A stretch of 64,000 bases of DNA from an uncultured bacterium (GCA_943788175.1 CALSPG010000002.1:37317-101316), one strand, 5' to 3'. Counted from the stretch's first letter, positions 579-17,893 are shown. Numbers and translations are program-made. The notes: generated by a model not told the origin, from the sequence alone.

Positions 579-629
579 TCTACCCATCATATCGTAAATA
601 GTGATATTAATTAAACCATCTTCTGGTAG
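579..629 (-). pseudogene. Remnant of a FlgD-Ig/T9SS-type C-terminal sorting domain
   Basis: Reads LPEDGLINITIYDMMGR, similar to LPANEFVSINVFDLMGR in the CTD of the 9397-13846 protein. No surrounding ORF. Confidence 0.6.
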
Positions 630-650
630 TATGAATGATAATATTTGAAT

Positions 651-684
651 AAAAGAAAACCTCTCCTTTTAAAGAGAGGTTTCT
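651..684 (-). terminator. Intrinsic terminator downstream of a tRNA remnant and the GH3 gene
   Basis: Stem AAACCTCTC (657-665) / GAGAGGTTT (674-682), followed by a T-rich tract on the minus strand. Confidence 0.7.
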
Positions 685-694
685 GAGAAGTAAC

Positions 695-724
695 TGGTAT
701 TATTCTCGAGTACGCCCGACAGGA
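695..724 (-). repeat. tRNA-Arg 3'-end remnant (att-like copy)
   Basis: 709-724 AGTACGCCCGACAGGA matches 14121-14136 at 15/16. 695-707 TGGTATTATTCTC is identical to 2764-2776. Confidence 0.8.
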
Positions 725-752
725 ATTTTATCAAATACCTTTGGTATACTTG

Positions 753-2492
753 TTAAAATGAAACATTATATGTAACTGGAGAATTACCAGTGAATTTTAT
801 TTCCCCAGTTAAGCCCTTAACCAATGCAAGTTGTGTATTATCGTCTGTCTGATAGCAATTTATTCGACACCAAATACGCGGCATATAGATCAGATTTTTG
901 TAGGGATCTCCAAATCCGATACTAATTACTTTACTTAATGGAAGTTTATTAGCAGTCCACATAGTTAAGGCTTTTGAGTTATTTAGATTTAATGTCCCCC
1001 AAGGATTTCCAGGATTACTATAAAATGCAAAAATAAACTTATCGTATTTAGAGCTTAGATGTTCTAAGCTACTTTCTAACTCAAAATAAGATAAATCATC
1101 TCTAATATCCACCTTATACCCTCTTTTGGATAGTTCTTTCTTCATTATGCTAAAACTTTCGGTTCCTTTTTTCTCTGAAACTGATACTATTAAAAGCCTC
1201 CTTGTTTTTGTAGTGTCTAATGGCAATTGTTTGTTTTTATCTGCTAACAGCGTGATCGATTTTTCGGAAATCTGGTATGCATGCTTTTTATTTTCATCGA
1301 ATTCTTTATCTGATACAGACTTAATTGATGAGTAGTTTCCGTTAAATAATCCAAGCTGTTTTTTCAAATTCCAAACACGGTTTACAGCATCGTTAAGCCT
1401 TTCCATTGGTATTTCTTCTCTTAAGATACGCGCCTCAAGGGAATCAATAATTTCAATCCTTGGCCACAACAAAATGTCTGCTCCCGCCTTAAAGCATTCA
1501 ATTTCGGTCTCTAATTGGTTTTCATAGTAACCTGCTATACCGGCCATGTCAAGTGCATCTGATACCACAACTCCCTTAAATCCCATTTCTTTTTTCAGCA
1601 GGTTAGTCATTAGTTCCTTAGACAAAGTAGCAGGCAAATATTCTCCATTTAGTTTTTCTTTCTGATAGGCAGGAAATGTAATATGACCAGCCATTATTAC
1701 GGCTACTCCATTATCTATAAGGGTTTGAAATACTTTGCCATTTTTTTGTTTCCAGTTATGATAGCTAATCTGTAAGGTAGATGTACTAAAATGCTGATTA
1801 ATAAAATCTGTGCCATCGCCTGGAAAATGTTTTGCCGTTGCTGCTACTCCGTTTTTTTGCATTGCTTTTACTTGATTTGGTAATAAGCGAGTAGCAATGT
1901 TTTCATCGTCACTTATGGCTCTTACGTTGGTAAGAAAATTACCCGGGTTATTGTTCAGGTCTGCTACTGGATGCAGCAACCAGTTGATTCCAATTCCTCT
2001 TGCTTCCTTAGATATAATGTTACCCATTGAATATGCCGCTTCCTCAGAATTGGTTGCCCCTACTCCCATCTCACTTGTAGTTCGTGTAAAGCCCTTTATC
2101 TCTGAGCCAATTCCCGCCTCAAAATCTTCTACATAAAGCATAGGATATTTTGATGCCTTACTGAATTGCTGAACAGTGTTTTGGTAATGTTTCCATAAAG
2201 AATCACTTGGTGCCTCCGGTTTCATGTTCCAATTTGCCAAAAAAACAGAACCTATTGGATATCTGTTTACCAGCGTATATATCGATCCATTGCCATGTTT
2301 GGCAATCAGGCCTTTGTCATATTTGAAACAAACAAGCTGTCCTATTTTTTCGCGTATAGATAATTTTTCCCAACCTCTATCATTATCGAAAGCCTTTTCT
2401 TTATCCATAACTGATTCCTTATTTTCTTTTTTTGTTCCACAACACACTATAAATAAACATATAGTAAGTAGAATAATGTTCCTTTTAATCAT
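753..2492 (-). CDS. GH3 glycoside hydrolase (beta-N-acetylhexosaminidase/phosphorylase-like), lipoprotein
   Basis: GH3 motifs DFEAG, KHFPGDG...QH and VVSDAL. N-terminal signal with Cys. Confidence 0.9.
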   Translation of the reverse strand: MIKRNIILLTICLFIVCCGTKKENKESVMDKEKAFDNDRGWEKLSIREKIGQLVCFKYDKGLIAKHGNGSIYTLVNRYPIGSVFLANWNMKPEAPSDSLWKHYQNTVQQFSKASKYPMLYVEDFEAGIGSEIKGFTRTTSEMGVGATNSEEAAYSMGNIISKEARGIGINWLLHPVADLNNNPGNFLTNVRAISDDENIATRLLPNQVKAMQKNGVAATAKHFPGDGTDFINQHFSTSTLQISYHNWKQKNGKVFQTLIDNGVAVIMAGHITFPAYQKEKLNGEYLPATLSKELMTNLLKKEMGFKGVVVSDALDMAGIAGYYENQLETEIECFKAGADILLWPRIEIIDSLEARILREEIPMERLNDAVNRVWNLKKQLGLFNGNYSSIKSVSDKEFDENKKHAYQISEKSITLLADKNKQLPLDTTKTRRLLIVSVSEKKGTESFSIMKKELSKRGYKVDIRDDLSYFELESSLEHLSSKYDKFIFAFYSNPGNPWGTLNLNNSKALTMWTANKLPLSKVISIGFGDPYKNLIYMPRIWCRINCYQTDDNTQLALVKGLTGEIKFTGNSPVTYNVSF

Positions 2493-2641
2493 TGTATCTT
2501 CCTGCTTCCTGGTTTTTGAATTGGTATATCTTTTAATCTGTCTGGCAATTTATCTGGTTCAATACTTACCGCATCAATTTAAATAATAGAAAACTGATAG
2601 ATATTTTTTCATATCAAAAATTTAACAAATAATGTTGAATC

Positions 2642-2720
2642 TGTGTCCCTTAAAAGTGTGTCCATCATTTTTGTGTCCATCATTTGCTAAATATTGATTA
2701 AGGATGACAAAGGATGACAA
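2642..2720. repeat. Putative integrase arm-type sites (TGTGTCC x3, 15-bp spacing) plus three 10-bp-phased TGAYWA repeats (putative Xis sites)
   Basis: GTGTCC at 2643, 2658, 2673. TGATTA/TGACAA/TGACAA at 2695, 2705, 2715. Same layout as 14002-14065. Confidence 0.65.
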
Positions 2721-2752
2721 AAGAAAACCCCCCGAATAACCGAGGGGTTTAA
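2721..2752 (-). terminator. Intrinsic terminator after the degenerate tRNA remnant
   Basis: AAACCCC...GGGGTTT hairpin with a minus-strand T tract. Confidence 0.6.
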
Positions 2753-2770
2753 TGAGAGATGTGTGGTATT

Positions 2771-2821
2771 ATTCTCTATTACGCCCTACAAGTTTCTAAC
2801 TTGTATGCTTATGCTCCGGAG
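2771..2821 (-). repeat. Degenerate tRNA-Arg(CCG) 3' half; left att site of the integrative element
   Basis: Aligns with 14115-14164. The 14-bp core CTTATGCTCCGGAG (2808-2821) is identical to 14151-14164. Confidence 0.85.
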
Positions 2822-2851
2822 TTATAATACTAATCGCTGTAAGTGCAATTA

Positions 2852-3959
2852 TTATGCGCGATAGTCACTAACCATACTTACCGTGTCCCGGAAAGCAGTG
2901 TCCCGAATTGATAATTTAGTAGAATATTGATATTGTTTTGCTAATAAAGGAAAATCTTGAGCAACCCTTTTAAGATTCATATTAGCATAAACTTCAGTGG
3001 TAGTTACAGAACTATGCCCCATGATAAGCTTCAAATCATAGATAGGCATGCCCTTAATTAAGCTTCTAACGGCAAATGTGTGTCTAAGCGAGTGAAAGTG
3101 CTTCTTTGAATTAATACCGATCGATTTAAGAGCATTTTTTAAACATCTTTGATAAATGATTGCCTTGATCTTTAATCGTAGAGCCATACCCTTCAATTAA
3201 CCACTCTTTATAATTGATAAATATTTTTCTTAAAGAACTGTCCAATTCAATATTTCTACTAGATCCTCCTTTAGACTCCTCGCTTATATCTATCCAGTCT
3301 CCTTCAATGACAGATATAAAAGGTTCTCTTAAACGCATACCAGTTTCAAGGTATAGTCTAAATACATCCTTATAAAATGGATCTAGCCAATCAAGAGCCA
3401 TAATTTCTTCAAATTCTTTCTCCGTGATGTATATTGGATCTTTCTTTCGGACTTTTAATTGTTCTATAAAAGGTATTTTATTTATTCGGTCATTTTTCAA
3501 TAAATAACCAAACATAGTTTTTATAGTACGGAGATGAATATTGATGGTATTAATACTTAAACCTTTAGATTTTAAAAAATCTATAAATCCTATTATATTG
3601 CTAGTTACAATTTCATTAACTGCTTTATTTCCACTTAGATATTTTATTAAATAGTCTGTACCTTGTTTGTTTAAAGTGAGTGTATTTTTAGTAGTATTTC
3701 TACTAGCTAACCACTCATCTGAGGCTTCTTTTAACGTATATTTTTTTACTTTGATCTTGATTTGATTTGATAGCCAGGGAAAAGAGAATGCTACACCTGA
3801 TTTAATACCATCCTCAACTGCGTTAACTTCTGTTAGTCTTTCATAGGCAACCGCCATAGATGAGGTTCTTAGAGGTATTAACTTTTCTTTTTCATCGCCT
3901 TTTATTTGCCACCTTACTCGTGCATAAAACTTTCCTTTTCGATCTCTTAACCTAGCCAT
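2852..3959 (-). CDS. Tyrosine recombinase/phage integrase (split by a +1 frameshift at the T6 run 3135-3140)
   Basis: The two ORFs join into ~368 aa with an N-terminal arm-binding region, SAM-like core, TGMR, HSLRH, MGH and TTEVY catalytic motifs. Confidence 0.9.
2882..2905. repeat. Integrase arm-type site pair inside the integrase 3' end
   Basis: CGTGTCCCGGAAAGCAGTGTCCCG versus CGTGTCCCGGAAATTAGTGTCCCG at 14002-14025. Confidence 0.75.
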
Positions 3960-4005
3960 ATTAATTATACTTCCGATGTCTACATTTGTTCATTAAAATT
4001 AGTTT

Positions 4006-4221
4006 ATGAATGATAAACAAAAATGGTTTATAGTAATATTAGTTGGATGTATAGTCACCCTTTTAACTGCATTAACAGAGACTGATTGGAGATTTCTGAT
4101 TGATGTAACATTATTAGATGGAGGAAGTGAATATCACTACTCAATTAATTGGGTAGGTTGTTTATTAGTGGGTATTTCATTCTCATCCATTACTGGATTC
4201 TTTCTTTTTAAAGATAAATAA
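4006..4221 (+). CDS. Small two-TM membrane protein
   Basis: 71-aa ORF with two hydrophobic segments, filling the gap between int and the rep-like gene. Confidence 0.6.
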   Translation: MNDKQKWFIVILVGCIVTLLTALTETDWRFLIDVTLLDGGSEYHYSINWVGCLLVGISFSSITGFFLFKDK

Positions 4222-4320
4222 TTAGACATGGACAGACGCTCTTTCATTACTATAAATGGTAACTAATAAGATACCCTAGTTTGTAAGGGACTAAATAACT
4301 AAAGATAGCCATTTACACCC

Positions 4321-4863
4321 TTAATTTTTAGGGAGGTTGTTTAATATAGGGTTTAATCCATTAGGGGGCTTAGTACTATTAGGACTATCTTTTGTAAGGG
4401 TGTTATTTTTCTTTTTAAAACGAGTTCCCCTCCCAACTATATAATCTTTTATCTTTGGAATCTCATGCTTCCAATTTTCCTTTGGAAACCTTTTCCAGCG
4501 ACATTCACTTTCTCTAACTCCTTCAATCCATAGAAGTTTGTACTTATTCATGTCTCCTCTTGCCATACCACCGCGATAAGTAACTTTAATGAGTCCTGCC
4601 TCAATTAGCTCATTTCTAGCCCTTATATACGTTGCAGAAGCTCCTAATCCATTTGCTTTGAACTCTCTTTCGGTGAATGAGACTTTTCCATTGTTCGTGT
4701 AAGAAAAATTCTTCTTCTTCCTTGATCCAGTAAACTTTAACTCAGAATAAAAGCACCACATCAAATTTTTAGCTGCCGGCGACAATGCTTGGTAAGCCTT
4801 AGACCAGTATAGCCTATTTGTTAACATAAACGTAAACCGTTTGTCAGGTACTGGTTTCATCAT
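4321..4863 (-). CDS. Winged-HTH protein, replication-initiator-like
   Basis: LSPAAKNL...ATYIRARNELIEAGLIKV...NKYKL pattern typical of phage/satellite HTH Rep N-domains. Lies directly after the xis-like gene. Confidence 0.55.
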   Translation of the reverse strand: MMKPVPDKRFTFMLTNRLYWSKAYQALSPAAKNLMWCFYSELKFTGSRKKKNFSYTNNGKVSFTEREFKANGLGASATYIRARNELIEAGLIKVTYRGGMARGDMNKYKLLWIEGVRESECRWKRFPKENWKHEIPKIKDYIVGRGTRFKKKNNTLTKDSPNSTKPPNGLNPILNNLPKN

Positions 4864-4875
4864 GAAATTATAACC

Positions 4876-5064
4876 TTACCCGTTGAGCCACTCATCAACT
4901 CTAGATCTTTTGATAAGAATACGACCAGTCTCTTTAGATGCTTTAAGATTACCTCTATCAATATATCTACGGATTGTTGCAGTTGATAACTTAGAGTATT
5001 TGACCACTTCACCTATAGTCATCCATTCATCATTATGAATGTTATTTAGTATGTTTTTCATCAT
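4876..5064 (-). CDS. Excisionase-like HTH_17/MerR-type DNA-binding protein
   Basis: EWMTIGEVVKYSKLSTATIRRYIDRGNLKASKETGRILIKRSRVDEWL is a typical Xis/HTH_17 pattern. Confidence 0.85.
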   Translation of the reverse strand: MMKNILNNIHNDEWMTIGEVVKYSKLSTATIRRYIDRGNLKASKETGRILIKRSRVDEWLNG

Positions 5065-5174
5065 TTTCTCCTATATGAATTAATATGATAGGAGAAAACT
5101 ATATATGAGCACCTGCTTGTTATTAGGGTGGGCTAATGGAGCTTACTTTGAAATTATACGACCGTATGAACTAT

Positions 5175-5807
5175 CTATCCCCAGCCTAAATGCTTGCCAA
5201 AGTTCTCAAAATACCTCACTGCTCTTAATTGAAATTGCTTTCTAATTAAATCTTTTTGTTCGTCTTCACCGTTGTATGATTTACCACTTTCTAGAGTTTT
5301 ACCATAATGATCCAATTTATATTCAACGAAAAGATCATATGCCATATCTATCTGCCTAGCTGGAATAAGACCATATTCTTTCATTTGCCAGAAGAAAGGA
5401 CACAAAGCTAAACGTAACATTATATTGTGACCTGCTCTTGGGATTTTTTCTAGTTTTATTTTATCAATAAGAACTTTATATAAACCTCTAAAAAATATCT
5501 TATCATCAACAGTTATTTTCTCTAATGTTTTTTTTTGACCTAAAATAGTTTCTAACTGTTTTATTTCTAGTCTTTTATTGTGTCTGAGGTGGTTGATTGT
5601 TTCTATTTCAAGTTCAGATCTATCGTGCAAGTTCATTTTCATATAAAATATTGCTTTATTTAAGCTATGGGATAACTTCTTGCTTTGCTCAATATCGAAG
5701 CCATGCTCAACAAAAAATCTCATTAGGTTTTCTTTTTCTAATTTGTATTCCTCATTCACTTTTGAGCGAAGAATCTCCATGAAGTCTCTTGATTGTGTCT
5801 TCTTCAT
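5175..5807 (-). CDS. Hypothetical protein of the element core
   Basis: 210-aa ORF co-oriented with xis and rep. Confidence 0.65.
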   Translation of the reverse strand: MKKTQSRDFMEILRSKVNEEYKLEKENLMRFFVEHGFDIEQSKKLSHSLNKAIFYMKMNLHDRSELEIETINHLRHNKRLEIKQLETILGQKKTLEKITVDDKIFFRGLYKVLIDKIKLEKIPRAGHNIMLRLALCPFFWQMKEYGLIPARQIDMAYDLFVEYKLDHYGKTLESGKSYNGEDEQKDLIRKQFQLRAVRYFENFGKHLGWG

Positions 5808-6190
5808 ATATAGATTATCTAGATATACACATTAGTAATACACCTAGAGCAATTCTAATTAGGAGGGTAAAATTCAAACTTGATCCCTCCGCTATATCGA
5901 TTTATCCAGCTTCTCGGAGTATTTTTTCTAACGTCATTGTTTTGATTTTTAGTAGTATGACTAGACGCTTGAAGGTCAGTATCCCCAGGGATTTGTAAGC
6001 TTACAGATTTAAATAAAAATGATATCAAAAGGATACTCAAAAACATTATAGTAACATGTGATTCTTTTATTTGCATACAACTAGTACTTCAACAAACTGA
6101 TAAGTGTTCCAAAATCATTTTTGTAACTACATGATGTATTGTATTTCAACTCAATTGTATAAATTGGAGCAATTAATAAAGGAGTTAATT

Positions 6191-6454
6191 ATGAAATCTT
6201 ATATACAAGGAATGATAACAGGTGGTGTTTTAGTTTTTGCTGCGATTGTTTTTATGGGAGCAAGAGGTGGTAACAATGGTAAATATCAAGTAGCAATCTC
6301 GGGAGAAGATATAATCATACTAGATACGAGTAATGGAATTGGTTTTAGGAGATTTGAGTATGGAAACGATTTGGCTCACGAAAAATTTACTTATGAAAGT
6401 TTTAATGCCTATTTTTTGAAGCAGTTGGATGAAGCTAGAAAGAAAGGTTATTAA
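6191..6454 (+). CDS. Small membrane-anchored hypothetical protein
   Basis: GGAG RBS at 6181 and ATG at 6191 (MKSYIQGMITGGVLVFAAIVFMG). N-terminus is paralogous to 20228-20500. Confidence 0.7.
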   Translation: MKSYIQGMITGGVLVFAAIVFMGARGGNNGKYQVAISGEDIIILDTSNGIGFRRFEYGNDLAHEKFTYESFNAYFLKQLDEARKKGY

Positions 6455-6505
6455 TTAATACTGCAGAACTAAATAGGTATCCAACCTAGCATAAGGAAAA
6501 AATAA

Positions 6506-7051
6506 ATGGGCATTTTAAAAAATTTATTTTCATCTGATCCAAAACAAGCAAAAACAGTTGCTAAGAAAATAAATATAATTTTTAATCATTTTTCTTATTT
6601 ACTGAGAAAAGAGAAACCAGATACAATTAAAAAATTTCTTTTTGAACCCGTTAACCTTTCTATAATAAATACTCTAGTTTCAATTGGGTATAACCAGATT
6701 GATGGAAATAATAACATGAATTCATTTTGGACTGAGAATGAGATGACAAAAAAAGATGCATCAGGCAGACACACTCCTTATGGGTTCACAAACTTAGTTT
6801 TTAGTAGATTAAAAATTAAGAGGATTAGTGTGGATGCTATGTGGAGGGAGTACTGTTATTGGAGAGTTGATAATGAAAGGGATAAGTTTCTACATAATTG
6901 GGGTGTTGGCTTAGGCATGATAATTTATGAAATTGAGGTAGCAGATTATGGTTGGGATTCTGATTATCTAGATGGTTTATTTAATAGACATTTAGAGTTT
7001 ATTAATAGCGAAGGTTACATAAATTATAAAATTAGAGTACTATCAATTTAA
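6506..7051 (+). CDS. Hypothetical protein
   Basis: 181-aa ORF with an AAGGA RBS. Confidence 0.65.
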   Translation: MGILKNLFSSDPKQAKTVAKKINIIFNHFSYLLRKEKPDTIKKFLFEPVNLSIINTLVSIGYNQIDGNNNMNSFWTENEMTKKDASGRHTPYGFTNLVFSRLKIKRISVDAMWREYCYWRVDNERDKFLHNWGVGLGMIIYEIEVADYGWDSDYLDGLFNRHLEFINSEGYINYKIRVLSI

Positions 7052-7830
7052 TTTGTCATCAAATTTCCATTGATGTCATATTCAAGCCTATATACAGTTT
7101 CAGAACCTTTTCTTATGAAGCTAAGTTGTTTATTTCCATTTTTATAAAATTGATCAAGCTGTGTATGATTGAAATCATAGGACATTAACATTTCAATTTC
7201 TTTTTCTCCTGTTTCATAATAACTTATTGTTTTAAAATATTTTTGGTCTGGTATAGTATGAGCCGTGATCTCTGTTACCCCATATTCGGTAATCTTTTTA
7301 AGCATACCGCTTTCATACCAATCATAATGTAATCCAATATTTTCATATTCTCTTTCATCATTAGATGGTTTTTTTAATAATATTTCACCACCATATTTAC
7401 TAGGCTCACCGTTATCATGAAACTCAAGCTTAACATAATAATAAGAAGCTCTAGAAAACTGAGGATCATTTTTCTCAAATTTTTTAGAGAAGATGTAATT
7501 TCCATGGTTTGACTTTATTTCATGCGGTTTATAAACTATCCAAGATTCATCTGTCGGCTTTCCATTAATGTAATCACCTCTAATTAAAAGTTTATTTCCT
7601 TCTAAATAAAAAAGATATTCACCATTTCTAACATTATCATTGTATCTGGTTTTTGACCTTAAATCACCATTAGAGTAATAAGTTTTAACACCTACTAAAA
7701 CCTCATCAAATCCCTTTCCATCATAATAATTAATTTTTTTTGGTGTACCATCCTCCCATCTTGTAATGATCTTTTCTGTTTGCCCAAAACAAACTCCGAC
7801 CAATAAAACGATTAATAGATATTTTTTCAT
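7048..7830 (-). CDS. Secreted MORN2-repeat (YwqK antitoxin-like) protein
   Basis: Signal peptide and repeats such as YYSNGDLRS, WYESGMLK, YYETGEKE, FYKNGNKQ. Confidence 0.8.
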   Translation of the reverse strand: MKKYLLIVLLVGVCFGQTEKIITRWEDGTPKKINYYDGKGFDEVLVGVKTYYSNGDLRSKTRYNDNVRNGEYLFYLEGNKLLIRGDYINGKPTDESWIVYKPHEIKSNHGNYIFSKKFEKNDPQFSRASYYYVKLEFHDNGEPSKYGGEILLKKPSNDEREYENIGLHYDWYESGMLKKITEYGVTEITAHTIPDQKYFKTISYYETGEKEIEMLMSYDFNHTQLDQFYKNGNKQLSFIRKGSETVYRLEYDINGNLMTN

Positions 7831-9149
7831 TATCCTATCTTTGCACTTTTAGTTCTATTACACGATTCACACAGTAATTGAATATTTCTAACAGTGTCTG
7901 CTCCACCTTTAGAATGAGGAATTATATGATCATATTCTAATTTTTCATTAATTCCACATTCAATACATTTACCTTCATCTCTTCTCCAAACTTCTCTCTG
8001 CACTGTTTTAGGTATTGGTTTTCTTTTAGATTGATTGTCACTTTTTTTTCTTTCATCTGCAAAAACGCAAATGTAGTTATCTTCAATATTTGTTATTTCA
8101 TGCCCAGGATAATAAAAAACATTTTTAGGATCATAATTTTTAGGATCAAGTTGATGCCTCAAAGCATCTTTTTTTAATATTCCAGTCTCATCATACCTTT
8201 CGTCGTATTCAATAATTTTTTTAATATAATGATTAAGATCTTTGTAATGATAAATATCATAATATTCATTTTCTGCATTGTAATATTCAGTAGAAAGGGA
8301 AATTCCTTGTTCTAAGATTTCGAAATATCTGATTATACTGTCATGGATTTCATCTTTATCTGATAAATCTAGAGTACTTATTTTTGACCAAGATTTTTTC
8401 ATACATTTAGTACATTGGATTTCTATTCCTGTGCCAGAAGAATTAGTATCTAGTAAATTAAAATATTCCGTGTTGCATTTTTTGCAATTATCAAATTTAT
8501 AATTTTCTTGGATTAGACTTTTTATTTTTGGCTCAAGTATTTCAATCTCTGTTATAAATGCTTTCATTTTAGAAGAATAACTAAAAACGATATCATTGCT
8601 TTTTAACCAATTATCATAATATTCTTTTCTCTCCTCCAAAATATTTTTATAATAAAGAAGATATTCATTATTTTTCTCATCCTGATCAAATTTTTGTTTC
8701 GGTTTACTAAAAGGATTAATCCTTTCAAAATCATTATGATTAAAGACAGCAAGTAAAATAAACCAAATAGATGAAAAAATTAGTACCCCAGCAATCCTAA
8801 ACGATTTTAATTGAATACCTATGCTAGTGTCAAATGCCCCTTCGCCAGAATAATACCAAAAATTTAAATATATAATACTAAAGCAAGCTGAAAGAGCTAA
8901 AAACAAAAATGTTATATAAAAAGAAGTATTAAGACTATGATACTTGCTTACAACCTTATCTTCACTATCACCATTACTAATAGAGTTAAATTTTTCTATA
9001 ATTATATATGACAAAAATATAATTAATGCTGGAATCGATATCGAGATTAAACCAGAAAGAAACCAGTCTGATATATTAGCTCCTTTAAACCATCCATAAT
9101 ATGGATACATTAAAAAGATTATTATAATAATAATTAAAGCTTCTCTCAT
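7830..9149 (-). CDS. Membrane-anchored HNH endonuclease with a Zn ribbon
   Basis: About four N-terminal TMs, CKKC...CTKC, and C-terminal RDEGKCIEC...EYDHIIPHSKGG...NIQLLCESCNRTK. Confidence 0.85.
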   Translation of the reverse strand: MREALIIIIIIFLMYPYYGWFKGANISDWFLSGLISISIPALIIFLSYIIIEKFNSISNGDSEDKVVSKYHSLNTSFYITFLFLALSACFSIIYLNFWYYSGEGAFDTSIGIQLKSFRIAGVLIFSSIWFILLAVFNHNDFERINPFSKPKQKFDQDEKNNEYLLYYKNILEERKEYYDNWLKSNDIVFSYSSKMKAFITEIEILEPKIKSLIQENYKFDNCKKCNTEYFNLLDTNSSGTGIEIQCTKCMKKSWSKISTLDLSDKDEIHDSIIRYFEILEQGISLSTEYYNAENEYYDIYHYKDLNHYIKKIIEYDERYDETGILKKDALRHQLDPKNYDPKNVFYYPGHEITNIEDNYICVFADERKKSDNQSKRKPIPKTVQREVWRRDEGKCIECGINEKLEYDHIIPHSKGGADTVRNIQLLCESCNRTKSAKIG

Positions 9150-9260
9150 ATCGAATCATTTAATTTATATAATCGTTACAGGAATTGGTTGCACATTGCT
9201 GAGATTATTAGACCACTTTTATATAAACAAATCTACAAAAAATTACCAAATAATGCGTGA

Positions 9261-9345
9261 ATGGCTTATTTTAACAAGCCCCACCCCCATAAAAGCTATT
9301 TCAGTTGCATTTATTAAGTTGAAAAATTGGAATTGATTTAAAACA
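9261..9345. repeat. ~85-bp imperfect direct repeat, copy 1 (copy 2 at 13914-14000)
   Basis: Shares GGCTTATT...CCCAC...TATTAAGTTGAAAAATTGGAATT with 13914-14000. Confidence 0.8.
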
Positions 9346-9366
9346 AAAAACCCCACTACTGTGGGG
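9345..9366 (-). terminator. Intrinsic terminator of the large secreted-protein gene
   Basis: CCCCAC-TACT-GTGGGG hairpin followed by T6 on the minus strand. Confidence 0.8.
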
Positions 9367-9396
9367 CTTAATGTGATTATTATTTTTAAGTAGAAA

Positions 9397-12300
9397 CTAC
9401 TTAAGCAGTACCATCTTTCTAGTCTGTCTGAACTCTCCTGCTTGGATTGTATAGATATACATTCCAGCTGAAACAGGTTGACCTAGATTATTTGTAGCAT
9501 TCCACTGAATAGATCTAAATCCTGCAACTTGATTCTTATTAACCAATGTTTTCACCTCTCTACCCATCAAATCAAATACATTGATACTTACAAACTCATT
9601 TGCTGGGAGGTCATAGCTAATGCTTGTTGTAGGGTTAAATGGATTCGGATAGTTCTGGTGCAATGCAAATACCTGAGGTATTGTCGCATCAATATCGTTT
9701 GATAGTGTTCCAGCTTGAGTAATGGATACTGTTCCAATTTGACCATCAGTAACAGTTACTACTGTTTGTGGATTCGTTGTCAAATCATACGATGTTTCAC
9801 CAATATGTAGAGAGACTATTAAAGAATCAGGAACATTATAATGCTCGGCATTAATCTGATAATCTCCTGTACCGAAGAATTTCACTGAATATTCTTCAAT
9901 ATTATCTTCACCAATTGAGTTTCTAATGTCCGTTAAATAACTATTACCTAATGGACTATTCCAATCCTCATGAGTAATCCTCATGTACACATCTGTTCCT
10001 GGCGGTGTAGGTGGCGAGACAACATCAAAACCATCATATTCATTGGAGGCTAATTCGCTAAAACCAAACGCAAGATTATTTAAAGTAAAACCCCAATCAT
10101 AATCTAGATCAGTTACCTCTCTACCGCCAGTTTGCTGAATGAAATGCCTTGGGAATTCAAATCCAATAGTGTGCGTTCCTACATAAGAACTTCCAACTAC
10201 GCCAATCCACATACCTTGAATAATATTTGTGGCACTGCTCAATGCGTAATAACCATTAGCAGTCCTATTGTAGATGATAATTTCATTTTGAGTTAAACCC
10301 ATACTAGCAGCCTCGCTCCATGAATAAGCAACTGTATCTCCATCAATTTCATTCAAGAAGACTATTATACTATCTTTTTCTACAGGTCTAGCTCCTGCTC
10401 CTGCCATAATCCAGCCAGGAATAGCATTATGCTCTATATACATTCTACCATCCGTATTAACATTTTCATCATAAAGGTCAGGGTGTTCTCCACCAAAAAA
10501 GAGCAGTTCATTTTCAGCTTCATTGCCAATCCAGAAAGAACTTCCACTTTGAGCAACTTTATCTGTGTTATTTATTAACTCATATGACTGATTATCGTGA
10601 TTCCAATCATATGCAACATATGCTCCGTTTAAATCACCAGCAATAACATCATCAATTACATCACCAGAATAATATGGATGTACAAGACTCCAACCAGGTT
10701 GAATCATACTTAAACCAACAGTGTCGCCAATTACCGTTGCTTGAGCAGTGTGATCTGAGCCAAGAGTTATTCCGTCTTCACTGAACCCTTTCACGGAAAA
10801 AGTGATATTTGGAATATGAGATGCTTGGACTAAAAGTAATAATTCAGTTAAATCAATATTAAGCGTATCATAACCAGATGAATCATAGGCTATGTTCTCA
10901 ATTATTGGAAATTCAGTCGAATTAGATAAGCTATAGACTAAGTCATAATCATATACTTCCGAGGTAAATGCTACATTTAGATCAAGTGTAGTATCTCCTG
11001 GAAATACAGATATTTCATCCAAACCGTTTACGGAGATGAAACCATCTGAACCCTCAGGATTACCAGCAACCAAGGTCACATAAGTAATGGCTGAGTTAGA
11101 GACAGGCATTTCAAAAGAACCACCATAAATTCCATTCATTTGATCTGTCATTAGTACATCATTAACATAAACAGCAAAGTTTTGAAGTGCAGTAAGGTTT
11201 CCAAATGGTAGAACCTCTACGGAAACAGTCCCATTTATGTCAGAATGAACTTCAAGATCAACTGAACGATTAAAGTTCATAAAATCTACATTTCCAATTG
11301 AAATGTAAGAGTAATCATCACCCAAAATATTTTCCCATGAAGGATTGTGCGATACCATCCTTACTCCCTGATTAGGAGCTGCTGGTGGAGCAGGAAGATC
11401 GTATCCAGAGTCATAGCCCATACTAGCCTCATCATTTCCAGCAAAATAAAATGTACTATTCCCAGCATTCTCTACTTGCGTTGTAAGCTGAAAGTACCAT
11501 TCAGGTGCGTTTACATTTCTAGATACATTTCTGCTCTCATTTCCATTTTCATCAATGTGAATGATATCATAATTATAACTTTCACCTGGAGCTAAGGATT
11601 CATCTACGAACTGATTGAAAGACGATCCCGATGCTAATACCTCTCCATTCCTTCTTACCTCAGTGTAAGAATAATCCTCATCCAAAGGAGCATCCCATGA
11701 AAGTGTAGTTGTATAGGTAAATGTAGCAAAACTCACATTGACTGGTTCAACTGGTGCGATATTATCTACTGAATATCCATCCATTGGGCTAGATACAAAG
11801 AAAACATCATCGTCATCTGTATGAGCTACCACTAAAAAGTTTGAAGTAAACATCCCAATATGATTTGAATCAGCAATAGTTGGTGCTGTGTAACCATAAT
11901 TATCAAATTCTTGTGCAGGAGTATCGCCAATATATTCCCAGGCGTTTGTATTTCGTGTATTTAAGCGGAAATACATACCATCTGGTGTAGGTTGTGCCTC
12001 AATAGAACTAGAGCCATCTGTGTCCAATTCACGCCAAATTGAATAGTGCGTTATATCATAAACATCACTGCTGCCATCATAGTGACTACCTGAGAATTGA
12101 ATTCCGACAAACCCGCCTTGATCTTGAGGCATATCTTCAACAACTGTAATACTTGGTTCTCCGCCACCAAGGTTAGATTCTTGAGCACCACAATTATTCA
12201 TGCCTCCATACATGCCCATGTCAGCTGCTAGAGTACCTTTACCGGGAGGCAAACAATTATCATAATCATCAGGGTGTGCAGAATCTATTGCCGGACTAAA

Positions 12301-13846
12301 ATTCGCTAATACTCCAAACTCATTTTCAAATATTGGATTAGCATTTGTTATATTATTTACACCATTAATGTTCAGACCATTTAAAATTGAATATTGAGAA
12401 TTAAATGCAGGATTGCTCGGATAGCTTACATTATTAGCAAAATTGATAATGCTGTTAAGAAAAACAATACTCGAATTTTCTATGCTAATTGAAGCTTGAT
12501 TTTGAACCTGCTCAAGAACTATGTGATTAAACAGAGGGTTTGAATTTTTTAGATAAAATATATTGCCCTTCGTTTCATAAACCATTGAGTTTGAAAAATC
12601 TAAAGTTGAATTTATAATTTCTAGACTTGCTGAAGGCTCTAAAACCGCAGAATTAATATAGTTATTCTGATCATTTTTTATCCTCAAAGCATATAAACGA
12701 TTCCAAGCACCATACCTGCTATAATATTGTAAACGATACTGATAGATACCACCTGATGGTAGAGATGCAGAATAGGTGTGATTTCCGCTTTGAAAATAAT
12801 TTGAATTACTTGAATTGGAACTATTGTATATAGTAACAACACTACTCCATCCTTCATTCCAATCCTCTTCTGGATCAAAATCTCGATATTGAATGCTAAA
12901 GTCGCAATTTGAATTTCCGTTGCTAGAAAAATAAAAATCAAATTCAAGTTGTAGCCCACCATCAATGTTATCAATAAAAGGAGTCTCAAAATAAAAATAA
13001 CCATAGCTTGCACTCATGCGTAAACCGTAATCTCCATCTGAGTTATCAAGATAAATTTGAGGACTATCCATATCATTATGCATTTTAAAAAGAAAAGGCT
13101 CATATGGCTGAATATTTAAAAGGTTTTGTCCATTTCCTCCAGCAGCCGGATAATTAAAGTCTTCATTGAAAATTTCTTGATAAGACGCATTTTGATTTAG
13201 ACTATTTACTGTAGAGATATTTATGTCTGATAAATATGAATATGACATTATTGAACTATCAGAGTTCAAAAAAGACAAACCAAGCCATTCATCATTTTCA
13301 TGACCTATCAATTTAATTAAACTGTCTGGTTTACCCTCTGCTATCAATCTTCCTAATACAGAAAATTGCGTATTATCCTTAAATTTTAACTCTACTCCCG
13401 GCTTTAATTCTAATATATTGCCCTCTTCAACATAAATATCTCCATCAATATCATAAGGTGAATAATCTGCTGATATGACACCAGACAAACTTCCAGTTAA
13501 ACTATTTACTACTTCAGCGTTTAACATAACAGCTGCTGTCCCAAAGGTGCTTCCTGCTAGCACTACTCTGGCTATCAAAATTTCCTACTTGAGGAGGATC
13601 AAAAGTCACAACCACTTGTTGGGTTTGACCATCAGTCATAGCAATCTCAGTTATGTCAACACTATAAAAACTTGGTGGTGTTATTGTTATTGTCTGATCA
13701 AGATTACAAGTAAGCGTAAAAGTTTGCGTTGGGGTATTCCCCATTAAAACATTTCCAAAGTCTAAAGTGGATGGCGATACTACAATTGCATCCTGTGAAA
13801 ATGTTAAAGAAAATAAAAGAATAAATGACGAAAGCATCTTTTTCAT
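9397..13846 (-). CDS. Large secreted multidomain protein (~1480 aa): ASH/choice-of-anchor-D-like, beta-helix-like, FN3-like, C-terminal FlgD-Ig/T9SS type-A-like domain; +1 frameshift near 13567
   Basis: ORF 13514-13846 (signal peptide, VSPSTLDFGNV) joins ORF 9397-13578 on removing one base. C-terminus ALHQNYPNPFNPTT...GMYIY...KMVLLK. Confidence 0.8.
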
Positions 13847-13913
13847 TGATATAGTTCCTCTTGTGTTGAAAAAATATAAACAAATTAAATAAAATATGTT
13901 AGGATTCGATTTA

Positions 13914-14000
13914 ACGGCTTATTATACAAATATCCCACTCCCTCTCACTTATATCAATTTCATATATTAAGTTGAAAAATTGGAATTACATCAAAATAAA
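13914..14000. repeat. ~85-bp imperfect direct repeat, copy 2
   Basis: Matches 9261-9345. Confidence 0.8.
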
Positions 14001-14001
14001 T

Positions 14002-14065
14002 CGTGTCCCGGAAATTAGTGTCCCGTTTTAAGTGTTTTATGATAATTGGTGATAATGTATGATAA
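14002..14065. repeat. Arm-type sites (GTGTCCCG x2) and TGATAA x3 at a 10-bp period
   Basis: GTGTCC at 14003 and 14018. TGATAA at 14040, 14050, 14060. Confidence 0.7.
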
Positions 14066-14122
14066 AAGAAAACCAACGATTTTATAGAGGGCTTGTCGTT
14101 AATAAATGGCGTTTATTCTCAG

Positions 14123-14169
14123 TGCGCCCGACAGGATTCGAACCTGTGACCTTATGCTCCGGAGGCATA
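14123..14169 (-). tRNA. tRNA-Arg(CCG) 3' half only (anticodon arm, T arm, acceptor 3' strand); att site
   Basis: Minus strand TATGC-CTCCGGA-GCATA AGGTC ACAGG-TTCGAAT-CCTGT CGGGCGC A. No D arm or acceptor 5' strand upstream. Confidence 0.85.
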
Positions 14170-14243
14170 GGCTTACATCTATTAAATGACTAATTTGATT
14201 TGATAGATTTCAAAACATCTTTCCTTAATTTATATCAAGCTAT

Positions 14244-14771
14244 ATGATTAATTATCCTTATTTAAGACTATTAAAAGCCTACTACGACTCCAAATCAAAG
14301 GAACCTTTAAAAATTGAGGGTGAATCCATTCTTAGGTTCCGTGCAGGTATTTTTGATATCGATCCCTATATGGAAATCAATAATGGCCGATATCACACTT
14401 TAGGAGATATTGGAAGATTTAACCATGGGTTTCGTACGGGGTTCTATAAAAAATCGAGAAAGCACAACTTAATATTTACCTTAGCAGGAGCAACCGCAAA
14501 GTACCGACACCGAATTCCTTTTTGGAAAAAGTTTGAAATGAGAACCAAACTCGTATTTACAGATGACAGATGGGTTTACTATAAAACAGATTTTCATTCC
14601 GAAGGCAGGTTAAGCTCTAGCATTTTAGCAAGAACAGGCACTGTCAAAAACAGAAAACTTATAACAACAAAAGAAGCGGCTAACTATTTCGAATTAGACG
14701 TTCCAGATTACGATCTACCAGATTGGGTATCTCTCTGGATTAAATCAGATTCAAAATATCCAGGTTTTTAA
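14244..14771 (+). CDS. Acyl-CoA thioesterase (4HBT_2/hotdog family)
   Basis: DIDPYMEINNGRY...DIGRF...YRHRIPFWKKF motif. Confidence 0.8.
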   Translation: MINYPYLRLLKAYYDSKSKEPLKIEGESILRFRAGIFDIDPYMEINNGRYHTLGDIGRFNHGFRTGFYKKSRKHNLIFTLAGATAKYRHRIPFWKKFEMRTKLVFTDDRWVYYKTDFHSEGRLSSSILARTGTVKNRKLITTKEAANYFELDVPDYDLPDWVSLWIKSDSKYPGF

Positions 14772-14780
14772 TATCTTTTT

Positions 14781-15278
14781 TCAATCTTTATCGGAAAGAT
14801 TAAAATGAATAACTGGCATTTGAACCTCTTGCTTTGCTAAGGTAGCTTCTATTTTATAATCGCCATACATACGATTTAGCATATCTGCCGCTTTAAGCCT
14901 TGCTCCAATGATTTGAGAAGTATCCTCAAAAACGCTAGTAAGAAAGGCTGCTCTTTCTTGCCTGGAGCTGACCCTATTACCTCTTTCATCTATTTTTCTA
15001 GCCTCTACAATTGCATCAGACTGGATAAGTCCACAATCTTTGTAGCCCTGCCTTTCTAGCTCTAAACGAATGAGCGGTTTTTTGAGGTTTTCGCATGCTA
15101 TTGTGTGTATGGATTGTCGACTTTTTGTCTTATACCCTGCTGCAATGACTGCTTGAGCACCATCACCGCCACTTTGAATATATGCGTCAACAAAACGCTG
15201 TTGTTTTAGCGTAAGCCGCTTATCAAAAGATAGAGCTCTACTCGATGATTGATTTGTCTGTTGATTTTTCATAATCAA
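14781..15278 (-). CDS. Phage terminase small subunit-like protein
   Basis: LTLKQQRFVDAYIQ...AQAVIAAGY...ACENLKKP...RLKAADML, a Terminase_2-type pattern. Confidence 0.85.
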   Translation of the reverse strand: MIMKNQQTNQSSSRALSFDKRLTLKQQRFVDAYIQSGGDGAQAVIAAGYKTKSRQSIHTIACENLKKPLIRLELERQGYKDCGLIQSDAIVEARKIDERGNRVSSRQERAAFLTSVFEDTSQIIGARLKAADMLNRMYGDYKIEATLAKQEVQMPVIHFNLSDKD

Positions 15279-15406
15279 ACTCCTTTTTATTTGGGAAATA
15301 GGACTCCCGGTTTTTTAATAAGAGTGTGATTATGTTTTATAAAAACCCCATATCATATTATAACAAGACTAACTAAAATCAAATAGTTTTTACGTTATTT
15401 TAATTT

Positions 15407-17629
15407 TTACAGGTTTAATTCCCAGAAGCTTAGCATTTTAGTATAGAGATGAATTCTTGCTTCATCATCTGCAATTCCATGCTTGCGCATGGGATAGAAC
15501 ATCATCTCAAACTGAATATTTTCTTTGACAAGCTCATCGATAAAATGCCAAGAGTTTTGTGGATGAACATTGTCATCGTATGTACCATGAACAAGAAGCA
15601 ATGACCCATGTAAATTTTTAGCAGTCTTGATAAAAGAAGTACTTTCATACCCTTCTGGGTTGTCTAAAGGGCGTTTCATACCAAACTCCGCCCATTTTGT
15701 ATCATAATAATGCCAATCCGTAACCGGCGCAACAGATACACCTGCTTGAAACTCTTTTGTATTGGTCATCATATTGAGCGTGAAGCTCCCTCCACCACTC
15801 CAACCCCAAACGCCAAACCTACTAGGGTCGGTATAGGATTGTGCTTTAAGCCATTTTATTCCATCAACCAGGTCTTCTCTTTCAATAGGGCCTGACATCG
15901 CCCTTAGAACGTGATTTTCAAGCTTCTTACTGATTGCGGTACTCGCACGATGATCGAACTTAACAATCAAATATCCTTTGTTAAGGAGCATGTTATCAAA
16001 GAATAGAGATTGACCTTGCCAGCGATCAAATACAGTTGGCGCGGAAGGTCCTCCATATACATGAAAAATGACCGGATACTTTTTAGAAGGATTAAAATCT
16101 TTTGGTTTTAAGATCTGCGCAGGCATCATAAAATTATCTCTGGTCGGAATCGTAAACAGTTCTGGGGTCTGCAGGTCATACTCTGCCAAAATCTCTGGCC
16201 GATCTCCAATAAGTGTATGCGCAGCTTTACCATCCTTGTTATGAAGGATAAGCGTTGGCGGAGAGGTTCTATCAGAAAACACATCTAAGTAGTAACTACC
16301 GCCCTCATTAAAATATATTTTATGAACGCCAGCGGGTCCAGATAGTTTCTCCATTGTCTTGCCATCCAGGCTAGACCTATAAAGATGCCTCTCCACAGAA
16401 GATTCTTTCATTGCCGTGTAATAAATTTGGTTATTTTTCTCATCTATATTGACCACAGATTGTCTCATCCAGAAGGTTCCACCTGATGATCTTAAAGCCC
16501 AATTTCCATCTGTAATCTGGTTAATAAGTTTGCCCTCATAGGAGAACTGATAAAGGTGCGCATACCCATTTCGCTCGGACTGCCAGATAAAGCTTTTATC
16601 TAAGAAATATAAATCATCCGTGATATTGACCCAGCCGCTATCGGTTTCTGTTAATATTTTTTTAACATTTTTCCCGGTGGCTCTATCAACAAAGAAAAGG
16701 TCTAATTTATCTTGAGCTCTGTTCATGGTCTGAACGCTCAAACGCTCGTTTCCAGGAAGCCACTTTACCCTACATAAATATTCAAAAGGATCTAGGTCTA
16801 CCCATTTCAGTTTTGAATTGCTTAATTCAATAATCCCAAGTTTGACAACTGGATTCTTTGTCCCCGCTTTTGGGTATCGCTGAGTAATAAGCTCAGATTC
16901 TGCTGGCTTCCAATGCACATAATGCATCTTCGTCACCTCAGACTCATCAGTGTTTAGGAACGCAATCGCTTTGGAATCATCTGACCACCAGTACCCAAGA
17001 TCTTTTCTCCCAAATATTTCTTCCCAATAGACCCAAGAAACCGTTCCATTCAAATTGGTTTCTGAACCACTAAAGGTGATTCTTTTTTCTTTTTGTGTTC
17101 GTATATCATAGATATACATATCATTATCTCTTACAAACGAAATTTTCTTGCCGTCTGGTGAAAACCTGGCTCCTTTTTCTTCTGATTTTGAATTCGTTAC
17201 TCTGCGATAGCTTTCATTTGGTACGTCTAAAATGTAAATATCATCTTCAAAGAAGTAGATACCGTGATTACCCGTTGAACTAAAGGAACTTGGCCATTCT
17301 AAATACATAGAGGTATCGGTTCTTCCTACTGCACTTAAAATAGATTTAGAAATTTTTTCACTATCAACAACAGGAACCATTTTCATCGATGAGCTTGGAT
17401 TCATTTTAAGTAGTGTGCGCTCCTCCTTTGGTTTGCGCATATCCATCAAATACAATGTATTATCATTAATCCAAGCGGTTTTGTAACTAGCGCCTACCAT
17501 CCTGCCTTCATCTGAATAAATCCAATCAATATCAAATTTTTCTTCTTTTATTTCATCACTACAGGCTTGAAAAAGAAATAACGGTAACAGTGTGTATTTT
17601 AAGATAGCTCTCATTTGGTTTCCTTTCAA
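15407..17629 (-). CDS. S9B dipeptidyl-peptidase IV family lipoprotein
   Basis: DPP-IV propeller (WVYWEEI), GWSGGG nucleophile, HGTYDDNVH, C-terminal His. Confidence 0.93.
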   Translation of the reverse strand: MKGNQMRAILKYTLLPLFLFQACSDEIKEEKFDIDWIYSDEGRMVGASYKTAWINDNTLYLMDMRKPKEERTLLKMNPSSSMKMVPVVDSEKISKSILSAVGRTDTSMYLEWPSSFSSTGNHGIYFFEDDIYILDVPNESYRRVTNSKSEEKGARFSPDGKKISFVRDNDMYIYDIRTQKEKRITFSGSETNLNGTVSWVYWEEIFGRKDLGYWWSDDSKAIAFLNTDESEVTKMHYVHWKPAESELITQRYPKAGTKNPVVKLGIIELSNSKLKWVDLDPFEYLCRVKWLPGNERLSVQTMNRAQDKLDLFFVDRATGKNVKKILTETDSGWVNITDDLYFLDKSFIWQSERNGYAHLYQFSYEGKLINQITDGNWALRSSGGTFWMRQSVVNIDEKNNQIYYTAMKESSVERHLYRSSLDGKTMEKLSGPAGVHKIYFNEGGSYYLDVFSDRTSPPTLILHNKDGKAAHTLIGDRPEILAEYDLQTPELFTIPTRDNFMMPAQILKPKDFNPSKKYPVIFHVYGGPSAPTVFDRWQGQSLFFDNMLLNKGYLIVKFDHRASTAISKKLENHVLRAMSGPIEREDLVDGIKWLKAQSYTDPSRFGVWGWSGGGSFTLNMMTNTKEFQAGVSVAPVTDWHYYDTKWAEFGMKRPLDNPEGYESTSFIKTAKNLHGSLLLVHGTYDDNVHPQNSWHFIDELVKENIQFEMMFYPMRKHGIADDEARIHLYTKMLSFWELNL

Positions 17630-17741
17630 ATTCTAACAGACGTTAACAACAAAATATAACTAATATGATTTAACGTAGTTTAATTAAAAACAAGAAAACT
17701 GGTTATTTATTCGTTATCAAAACTTGAAGTAATATATACCC

Positions 17742-17891
17742 ATGAAATTCTTTCGAGATGTGTTTAAAACAAGGGATATAACAGATTCAAAAAAAATAGA
17801 TTTTACTCCTTATAACATTATGGTCATTGTTGTAAGACTGTTTATTATTGCTTTTATCTTTTTAACGGTTAGCAGATACGTAGGTATTTAA
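17742..17891 (+). CDS. 49-aa single-TM small protein upstream of pxpB
   Basis: Manual translation MKFFRDVFKTRDITDSKKIDFTPYNIMVIVVRLFIIAFIFLTVSRYVGI*. Stop is 2 nt before the pxpB ATG. Confidence 0.5.
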   Translation: MKFFRDVFKTRDITDSKKIDFTPYNIMVIVVRLFIIAFIFLTVSRYVGI

Positions 17892-17893
17892 TC

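Follow-up and report, generated by a model that had tools for sequence, protein, structure and literature searches.

A probable additive island of small tyrosine-integrase elements at a tRNA-Arg(CCG) relic in a marine SAR406-type bacterium

We describe a variable locus in the left part of a 64,000-nucleotide stretch of DNA from an uncultured bacterium (GCA_943788175.1, CALSPG010000002.1:37317-101316), the whole of which is called the window below. The genome that holds it (G000; 2.27 Mb, 33% G+C, 12 contigs, the window being C2:37317-101316) is that of a marine SAR406-type bacterium, a relative of Candidatus Neomarinimicrobiota. At this locus, a gene for a GH3 glycoside hydrolase, a tyrosine-integrase gene followed by an excisionase-type gene (xis) and a backbone that ends in an HNH nuclease gene, and a gene for a large secreted protein with a sorting domain of the type IX secretion system (T9SS) lie in a row, separated by related modules that we call A, B, D and C from left to right (Table 1). 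The full copies of the module end in the 3' part of a tRNA gene, and the array stops on the right at a fixed flank. The original prediction took this arrangement for an integron-like array, in which one integrase serially stacks or excises single-gene, integrase-less cassettes at a tRNA gene; our analysis favors another account of how the modules came to be repeated.

Table 1. Features of the array and its right flank, in window coordinates
Feature	Position	Strand	Basis and remarks
T9SS C-terminal sorting domain-like coding remnant	579-629	-	71% identical to 9559-9609 in the C-terminal domain of the large protein
Module A, A-type att arm fragment, 95 nt	630-724	-	TGAYAA-like repeats; terminator 656-683; TATTCTC 701-707
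GH3 glycoside hydrolase, stranded cargo	753-2492	-	Pfam Glyco_hydro_3, 4.5e-65
Module B arm	2642-2781	-	GTGTCC x3; TGAYAA-like x3 (2695-2720); terminator 2725-2750; TATTCTC 2770-2776
Core B, degenerate tRNA-Arg(CCG) 3' part	2782-2826	-	78% to core C; 14-mer 2808-2821
Tyrosine integrase	2852-3959	-	Two frames in the window, 2852-3196 and 3126-3959; GTGTCC x2 at 2883-2903
Possible replication initiator	4321-4863	-	Weak match to phrog_270, 6.6e-05
Excisionase-type helix-turn-helix protein (xis)	4876-5064	-	Pfam HTH_17, 5.2e-12; phrog_66 'excisionase and transcriptional regulator', 6e-10
Element body open reading frames	5175-5807; 6104-6454; 6506-7051	-; +; +	No known family; the body spans 5175-7830
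MORN-repeat secreted protein	7048-7830	-	Element body
Membrane protein, C-terminal HNH nuclease	7830-9149	-	Pfam HNH, 3.6e-13; last gene of the integrase backbone
Module D remnant	9223-9392	-	Extension 9223-9347, which precedes the HNH gene; large-gene terminator 9348-9369
Large secreted protein, T9SS C-terminal sorting domain, captured cargo	9397-13846	-	Pfam Por_Secre_tail, FlgD_ig
Module C and extension	13913-14124	-	Extension 13913-14000; GTGTCC x2; TGATAA x3; weak hairpin and T-run; TATTCTC 14115-14121
Core C, tRNA-Arg(CCG) 3' part	14125-14169	-	Anticodon stem to acceptor end; 98% to the intact G004 tRNA
Decayed tRNA 5' side and fixed right flank	14170-14243	-	Sub-threshold Rfam match reaching 14190; conserved in G001
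Thioesterase-like gene, conserved flank	14244-14771	+	Pfam 4HBT_2
Terminase-small-subunit-like gene, conserved flank	14781-15278	-	Pfam Terminase_2; phrog_51, 1.7e-16

Modules B (2642-2826) and C (14002-14169) are full copies with an identical order of parts, as had been claimed: GTGTCC repeats spaced 15 bp apart (2643, 2658 and 2673 in B; 14003 and 14018 in C), three TGAYAA repeats spaced 10 bp apart (14040, 14050 and 14060 in C, with a degenerate set at 2695, 2705 and 2715 in B), AAAAGAAAACC with a hairpin, TATTCTC and the tRNA 3' part. Both kinds of repeat stand above chance as computed for the whole 2.27-Mb genome: GTGTCC pairs with a spacer of 8-10 nt occur eight times where 0.06 are expected, four of them within the array, and the phased TGAYAA triple occurs once, in module C, where 0.008 are expected. 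Two of the eight pairs have no att link and belong to tandem repeats of ~111-nt units that contain GTGTCCCGGTAGTTTGGTGTCC, at contig ends of G000 (C8:121265-123166 and C6:316179-318187). Searched with blastn against the whole genome, the modules match one another at 1.5e-4 (A and B), 8.8e-5 (B and C) and 1.6e-7 (C and D). On the minus strand, the hairpins that follow the tRNA end resemble intrinsic terminators, and a scan detects those of A, B and D, the hairpin of C being weaker. A fourth GTGTCC pair lies inside the 3' end of the integrase gene (2883-2903), where 2882-2905 matches 14002-14025 of module C at 92% identity, spacer included.

The other two copies are incomplete. Module A (630-724) bears out the partial copy proposed at 631-724, since it has only the TGAYAA-like repeats, terminator, TATTCTC and tRNA-end parts; it retains the last 14 nt of the tRNA (711-724) and lacks both the GTGTCC sites and the crossover segment defined below. 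Over its 95 nt it is 96.8% identical to the module at the intact tRNA-Arg(CCG) of a congener (G004), and this identity ends abruptly at 630 and 724, so A has been truncated at either side. On its left, the variable island begins at ~590-630: in contigs of all four metagenome runs used for a population check (X1, X3, X4 and X5, marine or seawater, from four studies, as assembled contigs only), the sequence breaks or branches at 583-626. Remnant D, by contrast, is not the decayed module that had been placed at 9261-9392. It has no GTGTCC, TGAYAA or tRNA part, and matches instead the extension to the left of module C (9260-9347 against 13913-14000, 72% over 88 nt), followed by the terminator of the large gene (9348-9369). 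More than 15 copies of this terminator type, AAAACCCCAC...GTGGGGCTT, stand on contig C8 after genes in a long run of secreted-protein paralogs; at ~8364-39736, the same contig carries a ~160-nt repeat in at least five copies (8364-8522, 9922-10080, 12345-12504, 14670-14826 and 19688-19845). The distances from A, B and D to the neighboring stop codons are as claimed (724 to 753, 2826 to 2852 and 9392 to 9397). No Rfam family matched the module or the extension, and a sigma-70 promoter scan was uninformative (64 found, 70.9 expected); the extension may have a promoter role.

Core C (14125-14169) is a 45-nt 3' part of tRNA-Arg(CCG) that comprises the anticodon stem and loop, the variable loop, the T arm and the acceptor strand. 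An array at tRNA-Arg(CCG) had been predicted, and this part bears it out, but there is no tRNA gene to go with it: ARAGORN finds no intact tRNA in the window or on the whole contig, and Rfam none at its gathering threshold. A sub-threshold Rfam match on the minus strand (14130-14190; 26.8 bits against a cut-off of 29; model positions 7-64) extends beyond the core. The intact tRNA-Arg(CCG) of G000, on contig C1, has a different anticodon stem and no module. The sister species G001 has the same relic junction and is 94.4% identical over 2734 nt of flank, through the genes for dipeptidyl peptidase IV (DPP-IV), the terminase-small-subunit-like protein (terS) and the thioesterase and into the core up to 14133, with unrelated sequence beyond; the loss of the tRNA 5' half therefore predates the separation of the two species. 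This suggests that a tRNA relic without its 5' half can stay an attachment site across a species split.

The two full modules share a 14-mer, CTTATGCTCCGGAG, found in the window only at 2808-2821 (B) and 14151-14164 (C), where 0.14 matches are expected window-wide; we regard it as the putative crossover segment. On the integrase side, tRNA identity ends at the 5' edge of the anticodon loop (in module B, in G201 from another genus of the same family, and in metagenome contig L051), and on the opposite side the match of the window to G001 and to an X1 contig stops at 14133-14139. These two edges would bracket the crossover to tRNA positions 32 to about 50. The att structure first proposed for this locus, that of a tyrosine integrase which targets the anticodon-loop region of tRNA-Arg(CCG), is supported.

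The integrase itself matches Pfam Phage_integrase (9.6e-12) and Phage_int_SAM_5 (6.9e-08) and is split into two frames in the window. Contigs from X1, X4 and X5, which are all of the runs that cover the site (X3 does not), leave out one base at 3131/3132; by frame arithmetic, its removal joins the frames into ~368 aa, and homologs measure 369-370 aa. The large protein likewise falls into two frames (9397-13578 and 13514-13846), and an X1 contig omits one base at 13561. Because independent contigs with one base fewer restore the frames, both frameshifts are probably assembly errors; the frame correction of the integrase foreseen for an excision assay is probably unnecessary, and other 'frameshifts' in G000 call for caution. 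Of 233 genomes searched across the order, 21 have a homolog of the integrase, with none at E<=1e-20 in the eight other genomes of the genus. An exact GGACAC pair is present at the 3' end of the integrase gene in 12 of the 21 loci (at one locus the sequence does not continue past the gene), and partial tRNA-model matches lie beside the gene in 6 of 20.

An attP of the lambda type is made of a P arm, a core and a P' arm, and carries arm-type Int sites as well as Xis sites. When module C with its core is joined to the integrase side at the shared 14-mer, the GTGTCC pairs come to lie 223 bp apart; pairs that are contiguous have spacings of 223 bp in G201 (tRNA-Arg), 225 bp in G199 (tRNA-Pro) and 225 bp from module B to the integrase in the window. 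To judge by this sequence layout, the joined module C and integrase side rebuild a classical attP, with arm-type repeats flanking the core on both sides. By analogy, GTGTCC would be the arm-binding site of the integrase, and TGAYAA that of Xis or another accessory protein. A scan with GTGTCCCGGAAANNAGTGTCCC returned no locus in viral contigs, three in genome contigs, of which one is relevant (G201), and five in metagenome contigs, of which four are unrelated GC-rich tandem repeats. The fifth, metagenome contig L051, begins at the core and continues into an integrase gene 76.5% identical to that of the window. The arm motif also matches 15-nt tandem repeats in GC-rich (~60%) contigs of unrelated organisms (L044 and L046-L050), among them one Candidatus Sulfotelmatobacter and one Spirochaetota; these contigs are probably unrelated to the element family.

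The module layout recurs in G000 at three other tRNAs. On contig C5, tRNA-Val(TAC) is followed by a module, ~9.8 kb with xis and integrase genes, and a direct repeat of 243 nt that is 90% alike; this sister element (C5:326429-336650), enclosed by the intact tRNA-Val and a tRNA-Val fragment, is apparently complete. The GTGTCC sites of its integrase-side copy are mutated, its integrase is also spread over several frames, and its cargo, judged by eye, resembles a 2-oxoacid dehydrogenase operon. On C7, an intact tRNA-Lys(TTT) has a module remnant directly downstream (C7:276440-276681, equal to 8440-8682 of locus L001) with GTATCCCCC twice, a terminator and TATTACTCTC, and with no integrase or tRNA-Lys fragment within 8.6 kb. 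At the tRNA-Pro site, C8 shows an integrase gene and then a Pro fragment, and the end of C7, where an intact tRNA-His and tRNA-Pro are followed by native DNA, matches C8:8351-10080 over 1733 nt at 99.5% identity. Since the empty and the occupied allele have both been assembled (C7:407076-410257 and C8:1-10595), at least one member of the family is polymorphic in the sampled population.

Beyond G000, an intact tRNA-Pro in G203 is followed in turn by a module, T9SS cargo, xis, integrase and a Pro fragment. In G004, the intact tRNA-Arg(CCG) leads into a complete A-type module and at least six genes with T9SS-type C-terminal domain matches, a region like that to the left of the window array, with no integrase in the 17 kb examined. 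In G201, at 1736-5655 of contig L052 (7584 nt), a C-type module that is 90% identical over 216 nt to that of the window adjoins an intact 369-aa integrase on one side and a McrBC-type pair (a 945-aa AAA_5 protein and McrC) on the other; defense genes, too, are thus cargo beside the module. The module of a previous occupant lies beyond the integrase-proximal core at five of seven loci (module B of the window, C5, G201, G199 and, in part, G203) and is absent in G228 and on C8. Because the same module adjoins intact tRNAs while the integrase lies at the far end, it can be identified as the integrase-distal arm, left tRNA-proximal after integration, together with an element-borne tRNA 3' part and a terminator.

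The modules beside tRNA-Lys and beside the G004 tRNA-Arg, which have no integrase nearby, would also fit a segmental duplication of a native regulatory region downstream of tRNA genes, with no mobile element at all. Against this, the module is missing from the native tRNA-Arg(CCG) locus on C1 and from the syntenic loci of G001 and G003, GTGTCC pairs also lie inside integrase genes, and the family is sporadically distributed (the 21 of 233 genomes above), so that we hold such a duplication to be extremely improbable.

In our judgment, the locus is probably an additive island at a tRNA-Arg(CCG) relic, formed by serial integration of related small tyrosine-integrase elements and later deletions. 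This account starts from what is observed directly, namely the anatomy of the modules, the family to which they belong, the spacing of the arms and the variability beyond the core, and the additive, tRNA-anchored island of the original prediction is upheld by it. The attP of such an element would consist of an integrase-distal arm, with a GTGTCC pair, phased TGAYAA repeats (probably bound by Xis or an accessory protein) and the tRNA terminator; a duplicate of the 3' part of the tRNA; a region within the anticodon loop and 3' stem where crossover takes place; and an integrase-proximal arm, provided by the second GTGTCC pair within the 3' end of the integrase gene. At whichever end of an element faces the tRNA, integration would leave the distal arm with the tRNA part and, since every integration does so, stacked elements would leave a row of modules. 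Layer A would then be the cut-down end of an old layer, and the GH3 gene with B a decayed element with neither an integrase nor a usable left att site. The stretch from 2822 to 14164 would be a composite, in which an int-xis-HNH backbone has become joined to the large T9SS protein and C, the cargo end of another, related element, the deletion at the fusion having removed the intervening arm, core and second integrase. Such a fusion would be what the accretion literature calls gene capture (PMC5704250). Remnant D, without arms and core, is then the fusion point of the two elements. In G199, an HNH remnant stands directly beside a full module at the equivalent place, from which it follows that the int-HNH backbone once had an arm of its own where D now is. 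With the only two copies of the 14-mer at its ends, the composite (11.3 kb) is the only unit that the integrase could still excise. The order of these events and any activity at the present day are, like the crossover position and the assignment of proteins to repeats, what we infer from this layout.

The large gene could, alternatively, have arrived by recombination at the extension rather than by fusion of two elements. The extensions of D and C, 72% alike, differ as much as modules A, B and C do among themselves, which argues against a recent duplication. A bolder version of the island account has the 11.3-kb composite active and newly in possession of its 1480-aa T9SS exoprotein, the conserved ~90-nt extension, which lies between the cargo and the arm sites, serving as a hot spot for swapping cargo and the family shuttling exported degradative proteins; we think this possible but rather unlikely. 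Were it true, the family would be a shuttle for exported degradative proteins among SAR406-type bacteria, with half of a dead tRNA gene as its attachment site.

An integron-like platform, in which a resident integrase captures and excises cassettes of a single gene and a module at a tRNA-derived site, would account for several features. Three units do have a module at their end, a short way before a gene start and shortly after the stop codon of the next gene; the cargo next to the module varies (T9SS protein, GH3 and HNH here, McrBC in G201); and many contig breakpoints fall at module edges. The GH3 unit, however, has no left crossover site and the large gene no att site on its left, there is no attC-like inverted repeat per cassette, and the modules are ordinary arms of integrase-bearing elements at four other tRNAs. 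The integron-integrase model of NCBIfam (TIGR02249) scores an intact homolog of the integrase at 45.6 bits and the two window pieces at 22.6 and 43.7, against a cut-off of 265. No circle appears among the contig joints, and two joints that lead back along the window are otherwise explained (see below). We consider such a platform improbable, and with it the proposal that a single integrase mobilizes integrase-less cassettes.

An independent contig of 7554 nt from X1 supports the order in the assembly: it runs unbroken over 2619-10173, through B, the core, the integrase and HNH genes, D and the start of the large gene. Other contigs cover 904-2648, 11484-13867 and 14139-18000, the last (from X1) with a remaining 2982 nt that found no place on the window. 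These contigs, together with the core/flank junction found also in G001, make it very improbable that the array is chimeric, an artefact of collapsing or mis-joining related elements when the genome was assembled from metagenomes, a view that could draw on the single-base errors at 3131/3132 and 13561, on contig ends that overlap other contigs and on the assembly of both tRNA-Pro alleles. In the comparison across genomes for which the original prediction called, the right flank is fixed and the content beyond the core varies (G001, X1 contig).

Contig depth also differs among the layers. It is 127-164 in X3 and 92-249 in X4 over the flanks (1-600 and 14401-18000), with 11 on the left and 54-74 on the right in X5; over the GH3 gene (1201-2400) it is ~90 in X3, 0 in X4 and 0-3 in X5; and over the integrase backbone (3001-7200) it is 3-22, 0-15 and 1-7 in X3, X4 and X5, respectively. 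This pattern fits an independent presence or absence of layers as a consistency argument only, depths being sums over contigs to which other strains and paralogs may contribute, and uncovered stretches in X4 and X5 contigs taken alone prove nothing.

The circular junctions proposed originally (14164 to 2822 and 2821 to 725) are not among the contig joints shown, and neither is a joint from 2821 to 14165; assembled contigs drop rare forms, which leaves excision possible. A joint from 2648 to 630 was rejected as a circle: its 35 extra letters are the reverse complement of an arm part of the G004 A-type module, and the joint reflects a strain in the same sample whose A-type module is complete. 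A joint from 9245 to 2656 (X5, depth 6.55) was not counted, as it joins two family-conserved stretches and maybe belongs to another element. High-depth joints (626 to 9223, 590 to 9341, 7830/7833 to 9228/9406 and 9374 to 9623) were not used because their sides measure 18-38 nt and consist of genome-repeated motifs, namely the terminator type repeated on C8, a shared signal-peptide coding start, and CTACAAAAAATTACC, which has 24 near-matches.

Several points weigh against the island account. The array has no intact tRNA as its anchor, so the usual attR structure is incomplete, and no attP or empty-site junction for 2822-14164 occurs among the contig joints, in an assembly type that loses rare forms. 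Module C and the flank reach high depth in runs where the integrase backbone is rare, so C-type modules also exist without this element; depths of this kind may include paralogs and other strains. Extensions that are 72% alike do not tell fusion from extension recombination as the route by which the large gene entered, and the binding of the integrase to GTGTCC and of Xis to TGAYAA is predicted by analogy.

The frequent carriage of exported proteins, another feature of the original prediction, is supported by the cargo found here and in the related loci. None of 53 other genomes of the family contains a close ortholog of the GH3 gene; the best matches, at 32% identity, come from two genomes. 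Homologs of the possible replication initiator adjoin the integrase gene on C8 (65%) and in G199 (56%). To the right of the array, flank gene order is the same in G001, and flank contig depth is high in X3, X4 and X5. The terS-like gene stands alone between the DPP-IV and thioesterase genes, with a G001 copy of 87% amino acid identity, and may be a relic of a satellite-like element across the att site. Downstream of DPP-IV in G002, G005, G006, G007 and G016, there is no tRNA and no element, and the neighborhood is variable.

Among known systems, the reconstructed attP resembles that of lambda in that arm-type repeats flank the core, phased accessory repeats occur in the integrase-distal arm only and the integrase-proximal arm abuts or overlaps the integrase gene; it differs in that the core is a tRNA 3' part with a terminator. 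Integrons are ordered rows of cargo units separated by recombination-site repeats, with attC sites and an attI/Pc platform. The present locus shares with them the ordered row of cargo units split by recombination-site-like repeats, but has no IntI-type integrase, no attI/Pc platform and no attC hairpins: its repeats, which are the arms of whole elements, are direct and composite, with a tRNA part and a terminator, and the integrase gene lies inside the array and not at a platform end.

Site-specific islands with adaptive cargo at the end of a small RNA gene are also described from Dehalococcoides, where they stand in tandem at ssrA, the tmRNA gene (PMC3146451). Closer parallels are offered by cis-mobilizable elements (CIMEs), for which a review sets out a three-step route of decay and accretion (PMC5704250; Pavlovic 2004 and Bellanger 2011 as cited there). 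Like the CIME/ICESt1 group in that account, the locus combines integration with later decay to an integrase-less unit, in a setting where composite units can move together. A CIME as described there has no integrase and retains attL and attR, whereas all that is left of the left att of the GH3 unit is 14 nt of tRNA that do not include the crossover 14-mer, neither a core nor an att site of its own lies to the left of the large gene, and no conjugation genes are present; with one att site missing, these integrase-less units are strictly not CIMEs.

The closest likeness is to tycheposons, the tRNA-anchored additive islands of Prochlorococcus (Hackl et al., bioRxiv 10.1101/2020.12.28.424599). As described there, tycheposons have a tyrosine recombinase aimed at the 3' part of a tRNA, and they carry xis, a small gene of the replication type and cargo; several elements adjoin one another with partial tRNAs between them, and degenerate remnants accumulate; heterogeneity peaks next to the tRNA, the habitat is marine, and terS lies nearby. 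The likeness is one of layout and gene content. Our locus has the tyrosine recombinase, the direct repeats of the tRNA 3' part (cores 2782-2826 and 14125-14169 with their shared 14-mer), a clear xis and cargo; the intact tRNA is absent from the window and contig and present in the congener G004, and a possible initiator has the weak phrog_270 match (6.6e-05). It differs in belonging to another phylum than the tycheposon hosts named there, which besides Prochlorococcus are Alpha-, Gamma- and Deltaproteobacteria; in an anchor tRNA that is a relic without its 5' half; in whole arms of ~170-250 nt, mapped here, that recur beyond the tRNA piece; and in cargo made up mostly of T9SS-exported proteins and glycosidases. 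The words 'Marinimicrobia' and 'SAR406' do not occur in the available text of the preprint, and no description of such elements in Marinimicrobia was found in the literature as represented by titles and the opening of abstracts.

Bacteria of the SAR406/Marinimicrobia type, which are abundant in the ocean, have not been brought into culture, and little is known of how they acquire genes. This locus and its sisters suggest that islands are built in the tycheposon or accretion style in this phylum as well, with cargo of ecological meaning (T9SS-secreted proteins, a GH3 glycosidase and, in a relative, McrBC defense). The locus further provides an unusually clear and testable att map, with GTGTCC pairs ~224 bp apart, phased TGAYAA repeats and a putative crossover between tRNA positions 32 and ~50. 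Taken together, the locus is probably best placed with known models of tycheposon island building and CIME accretion, and not with integrons.

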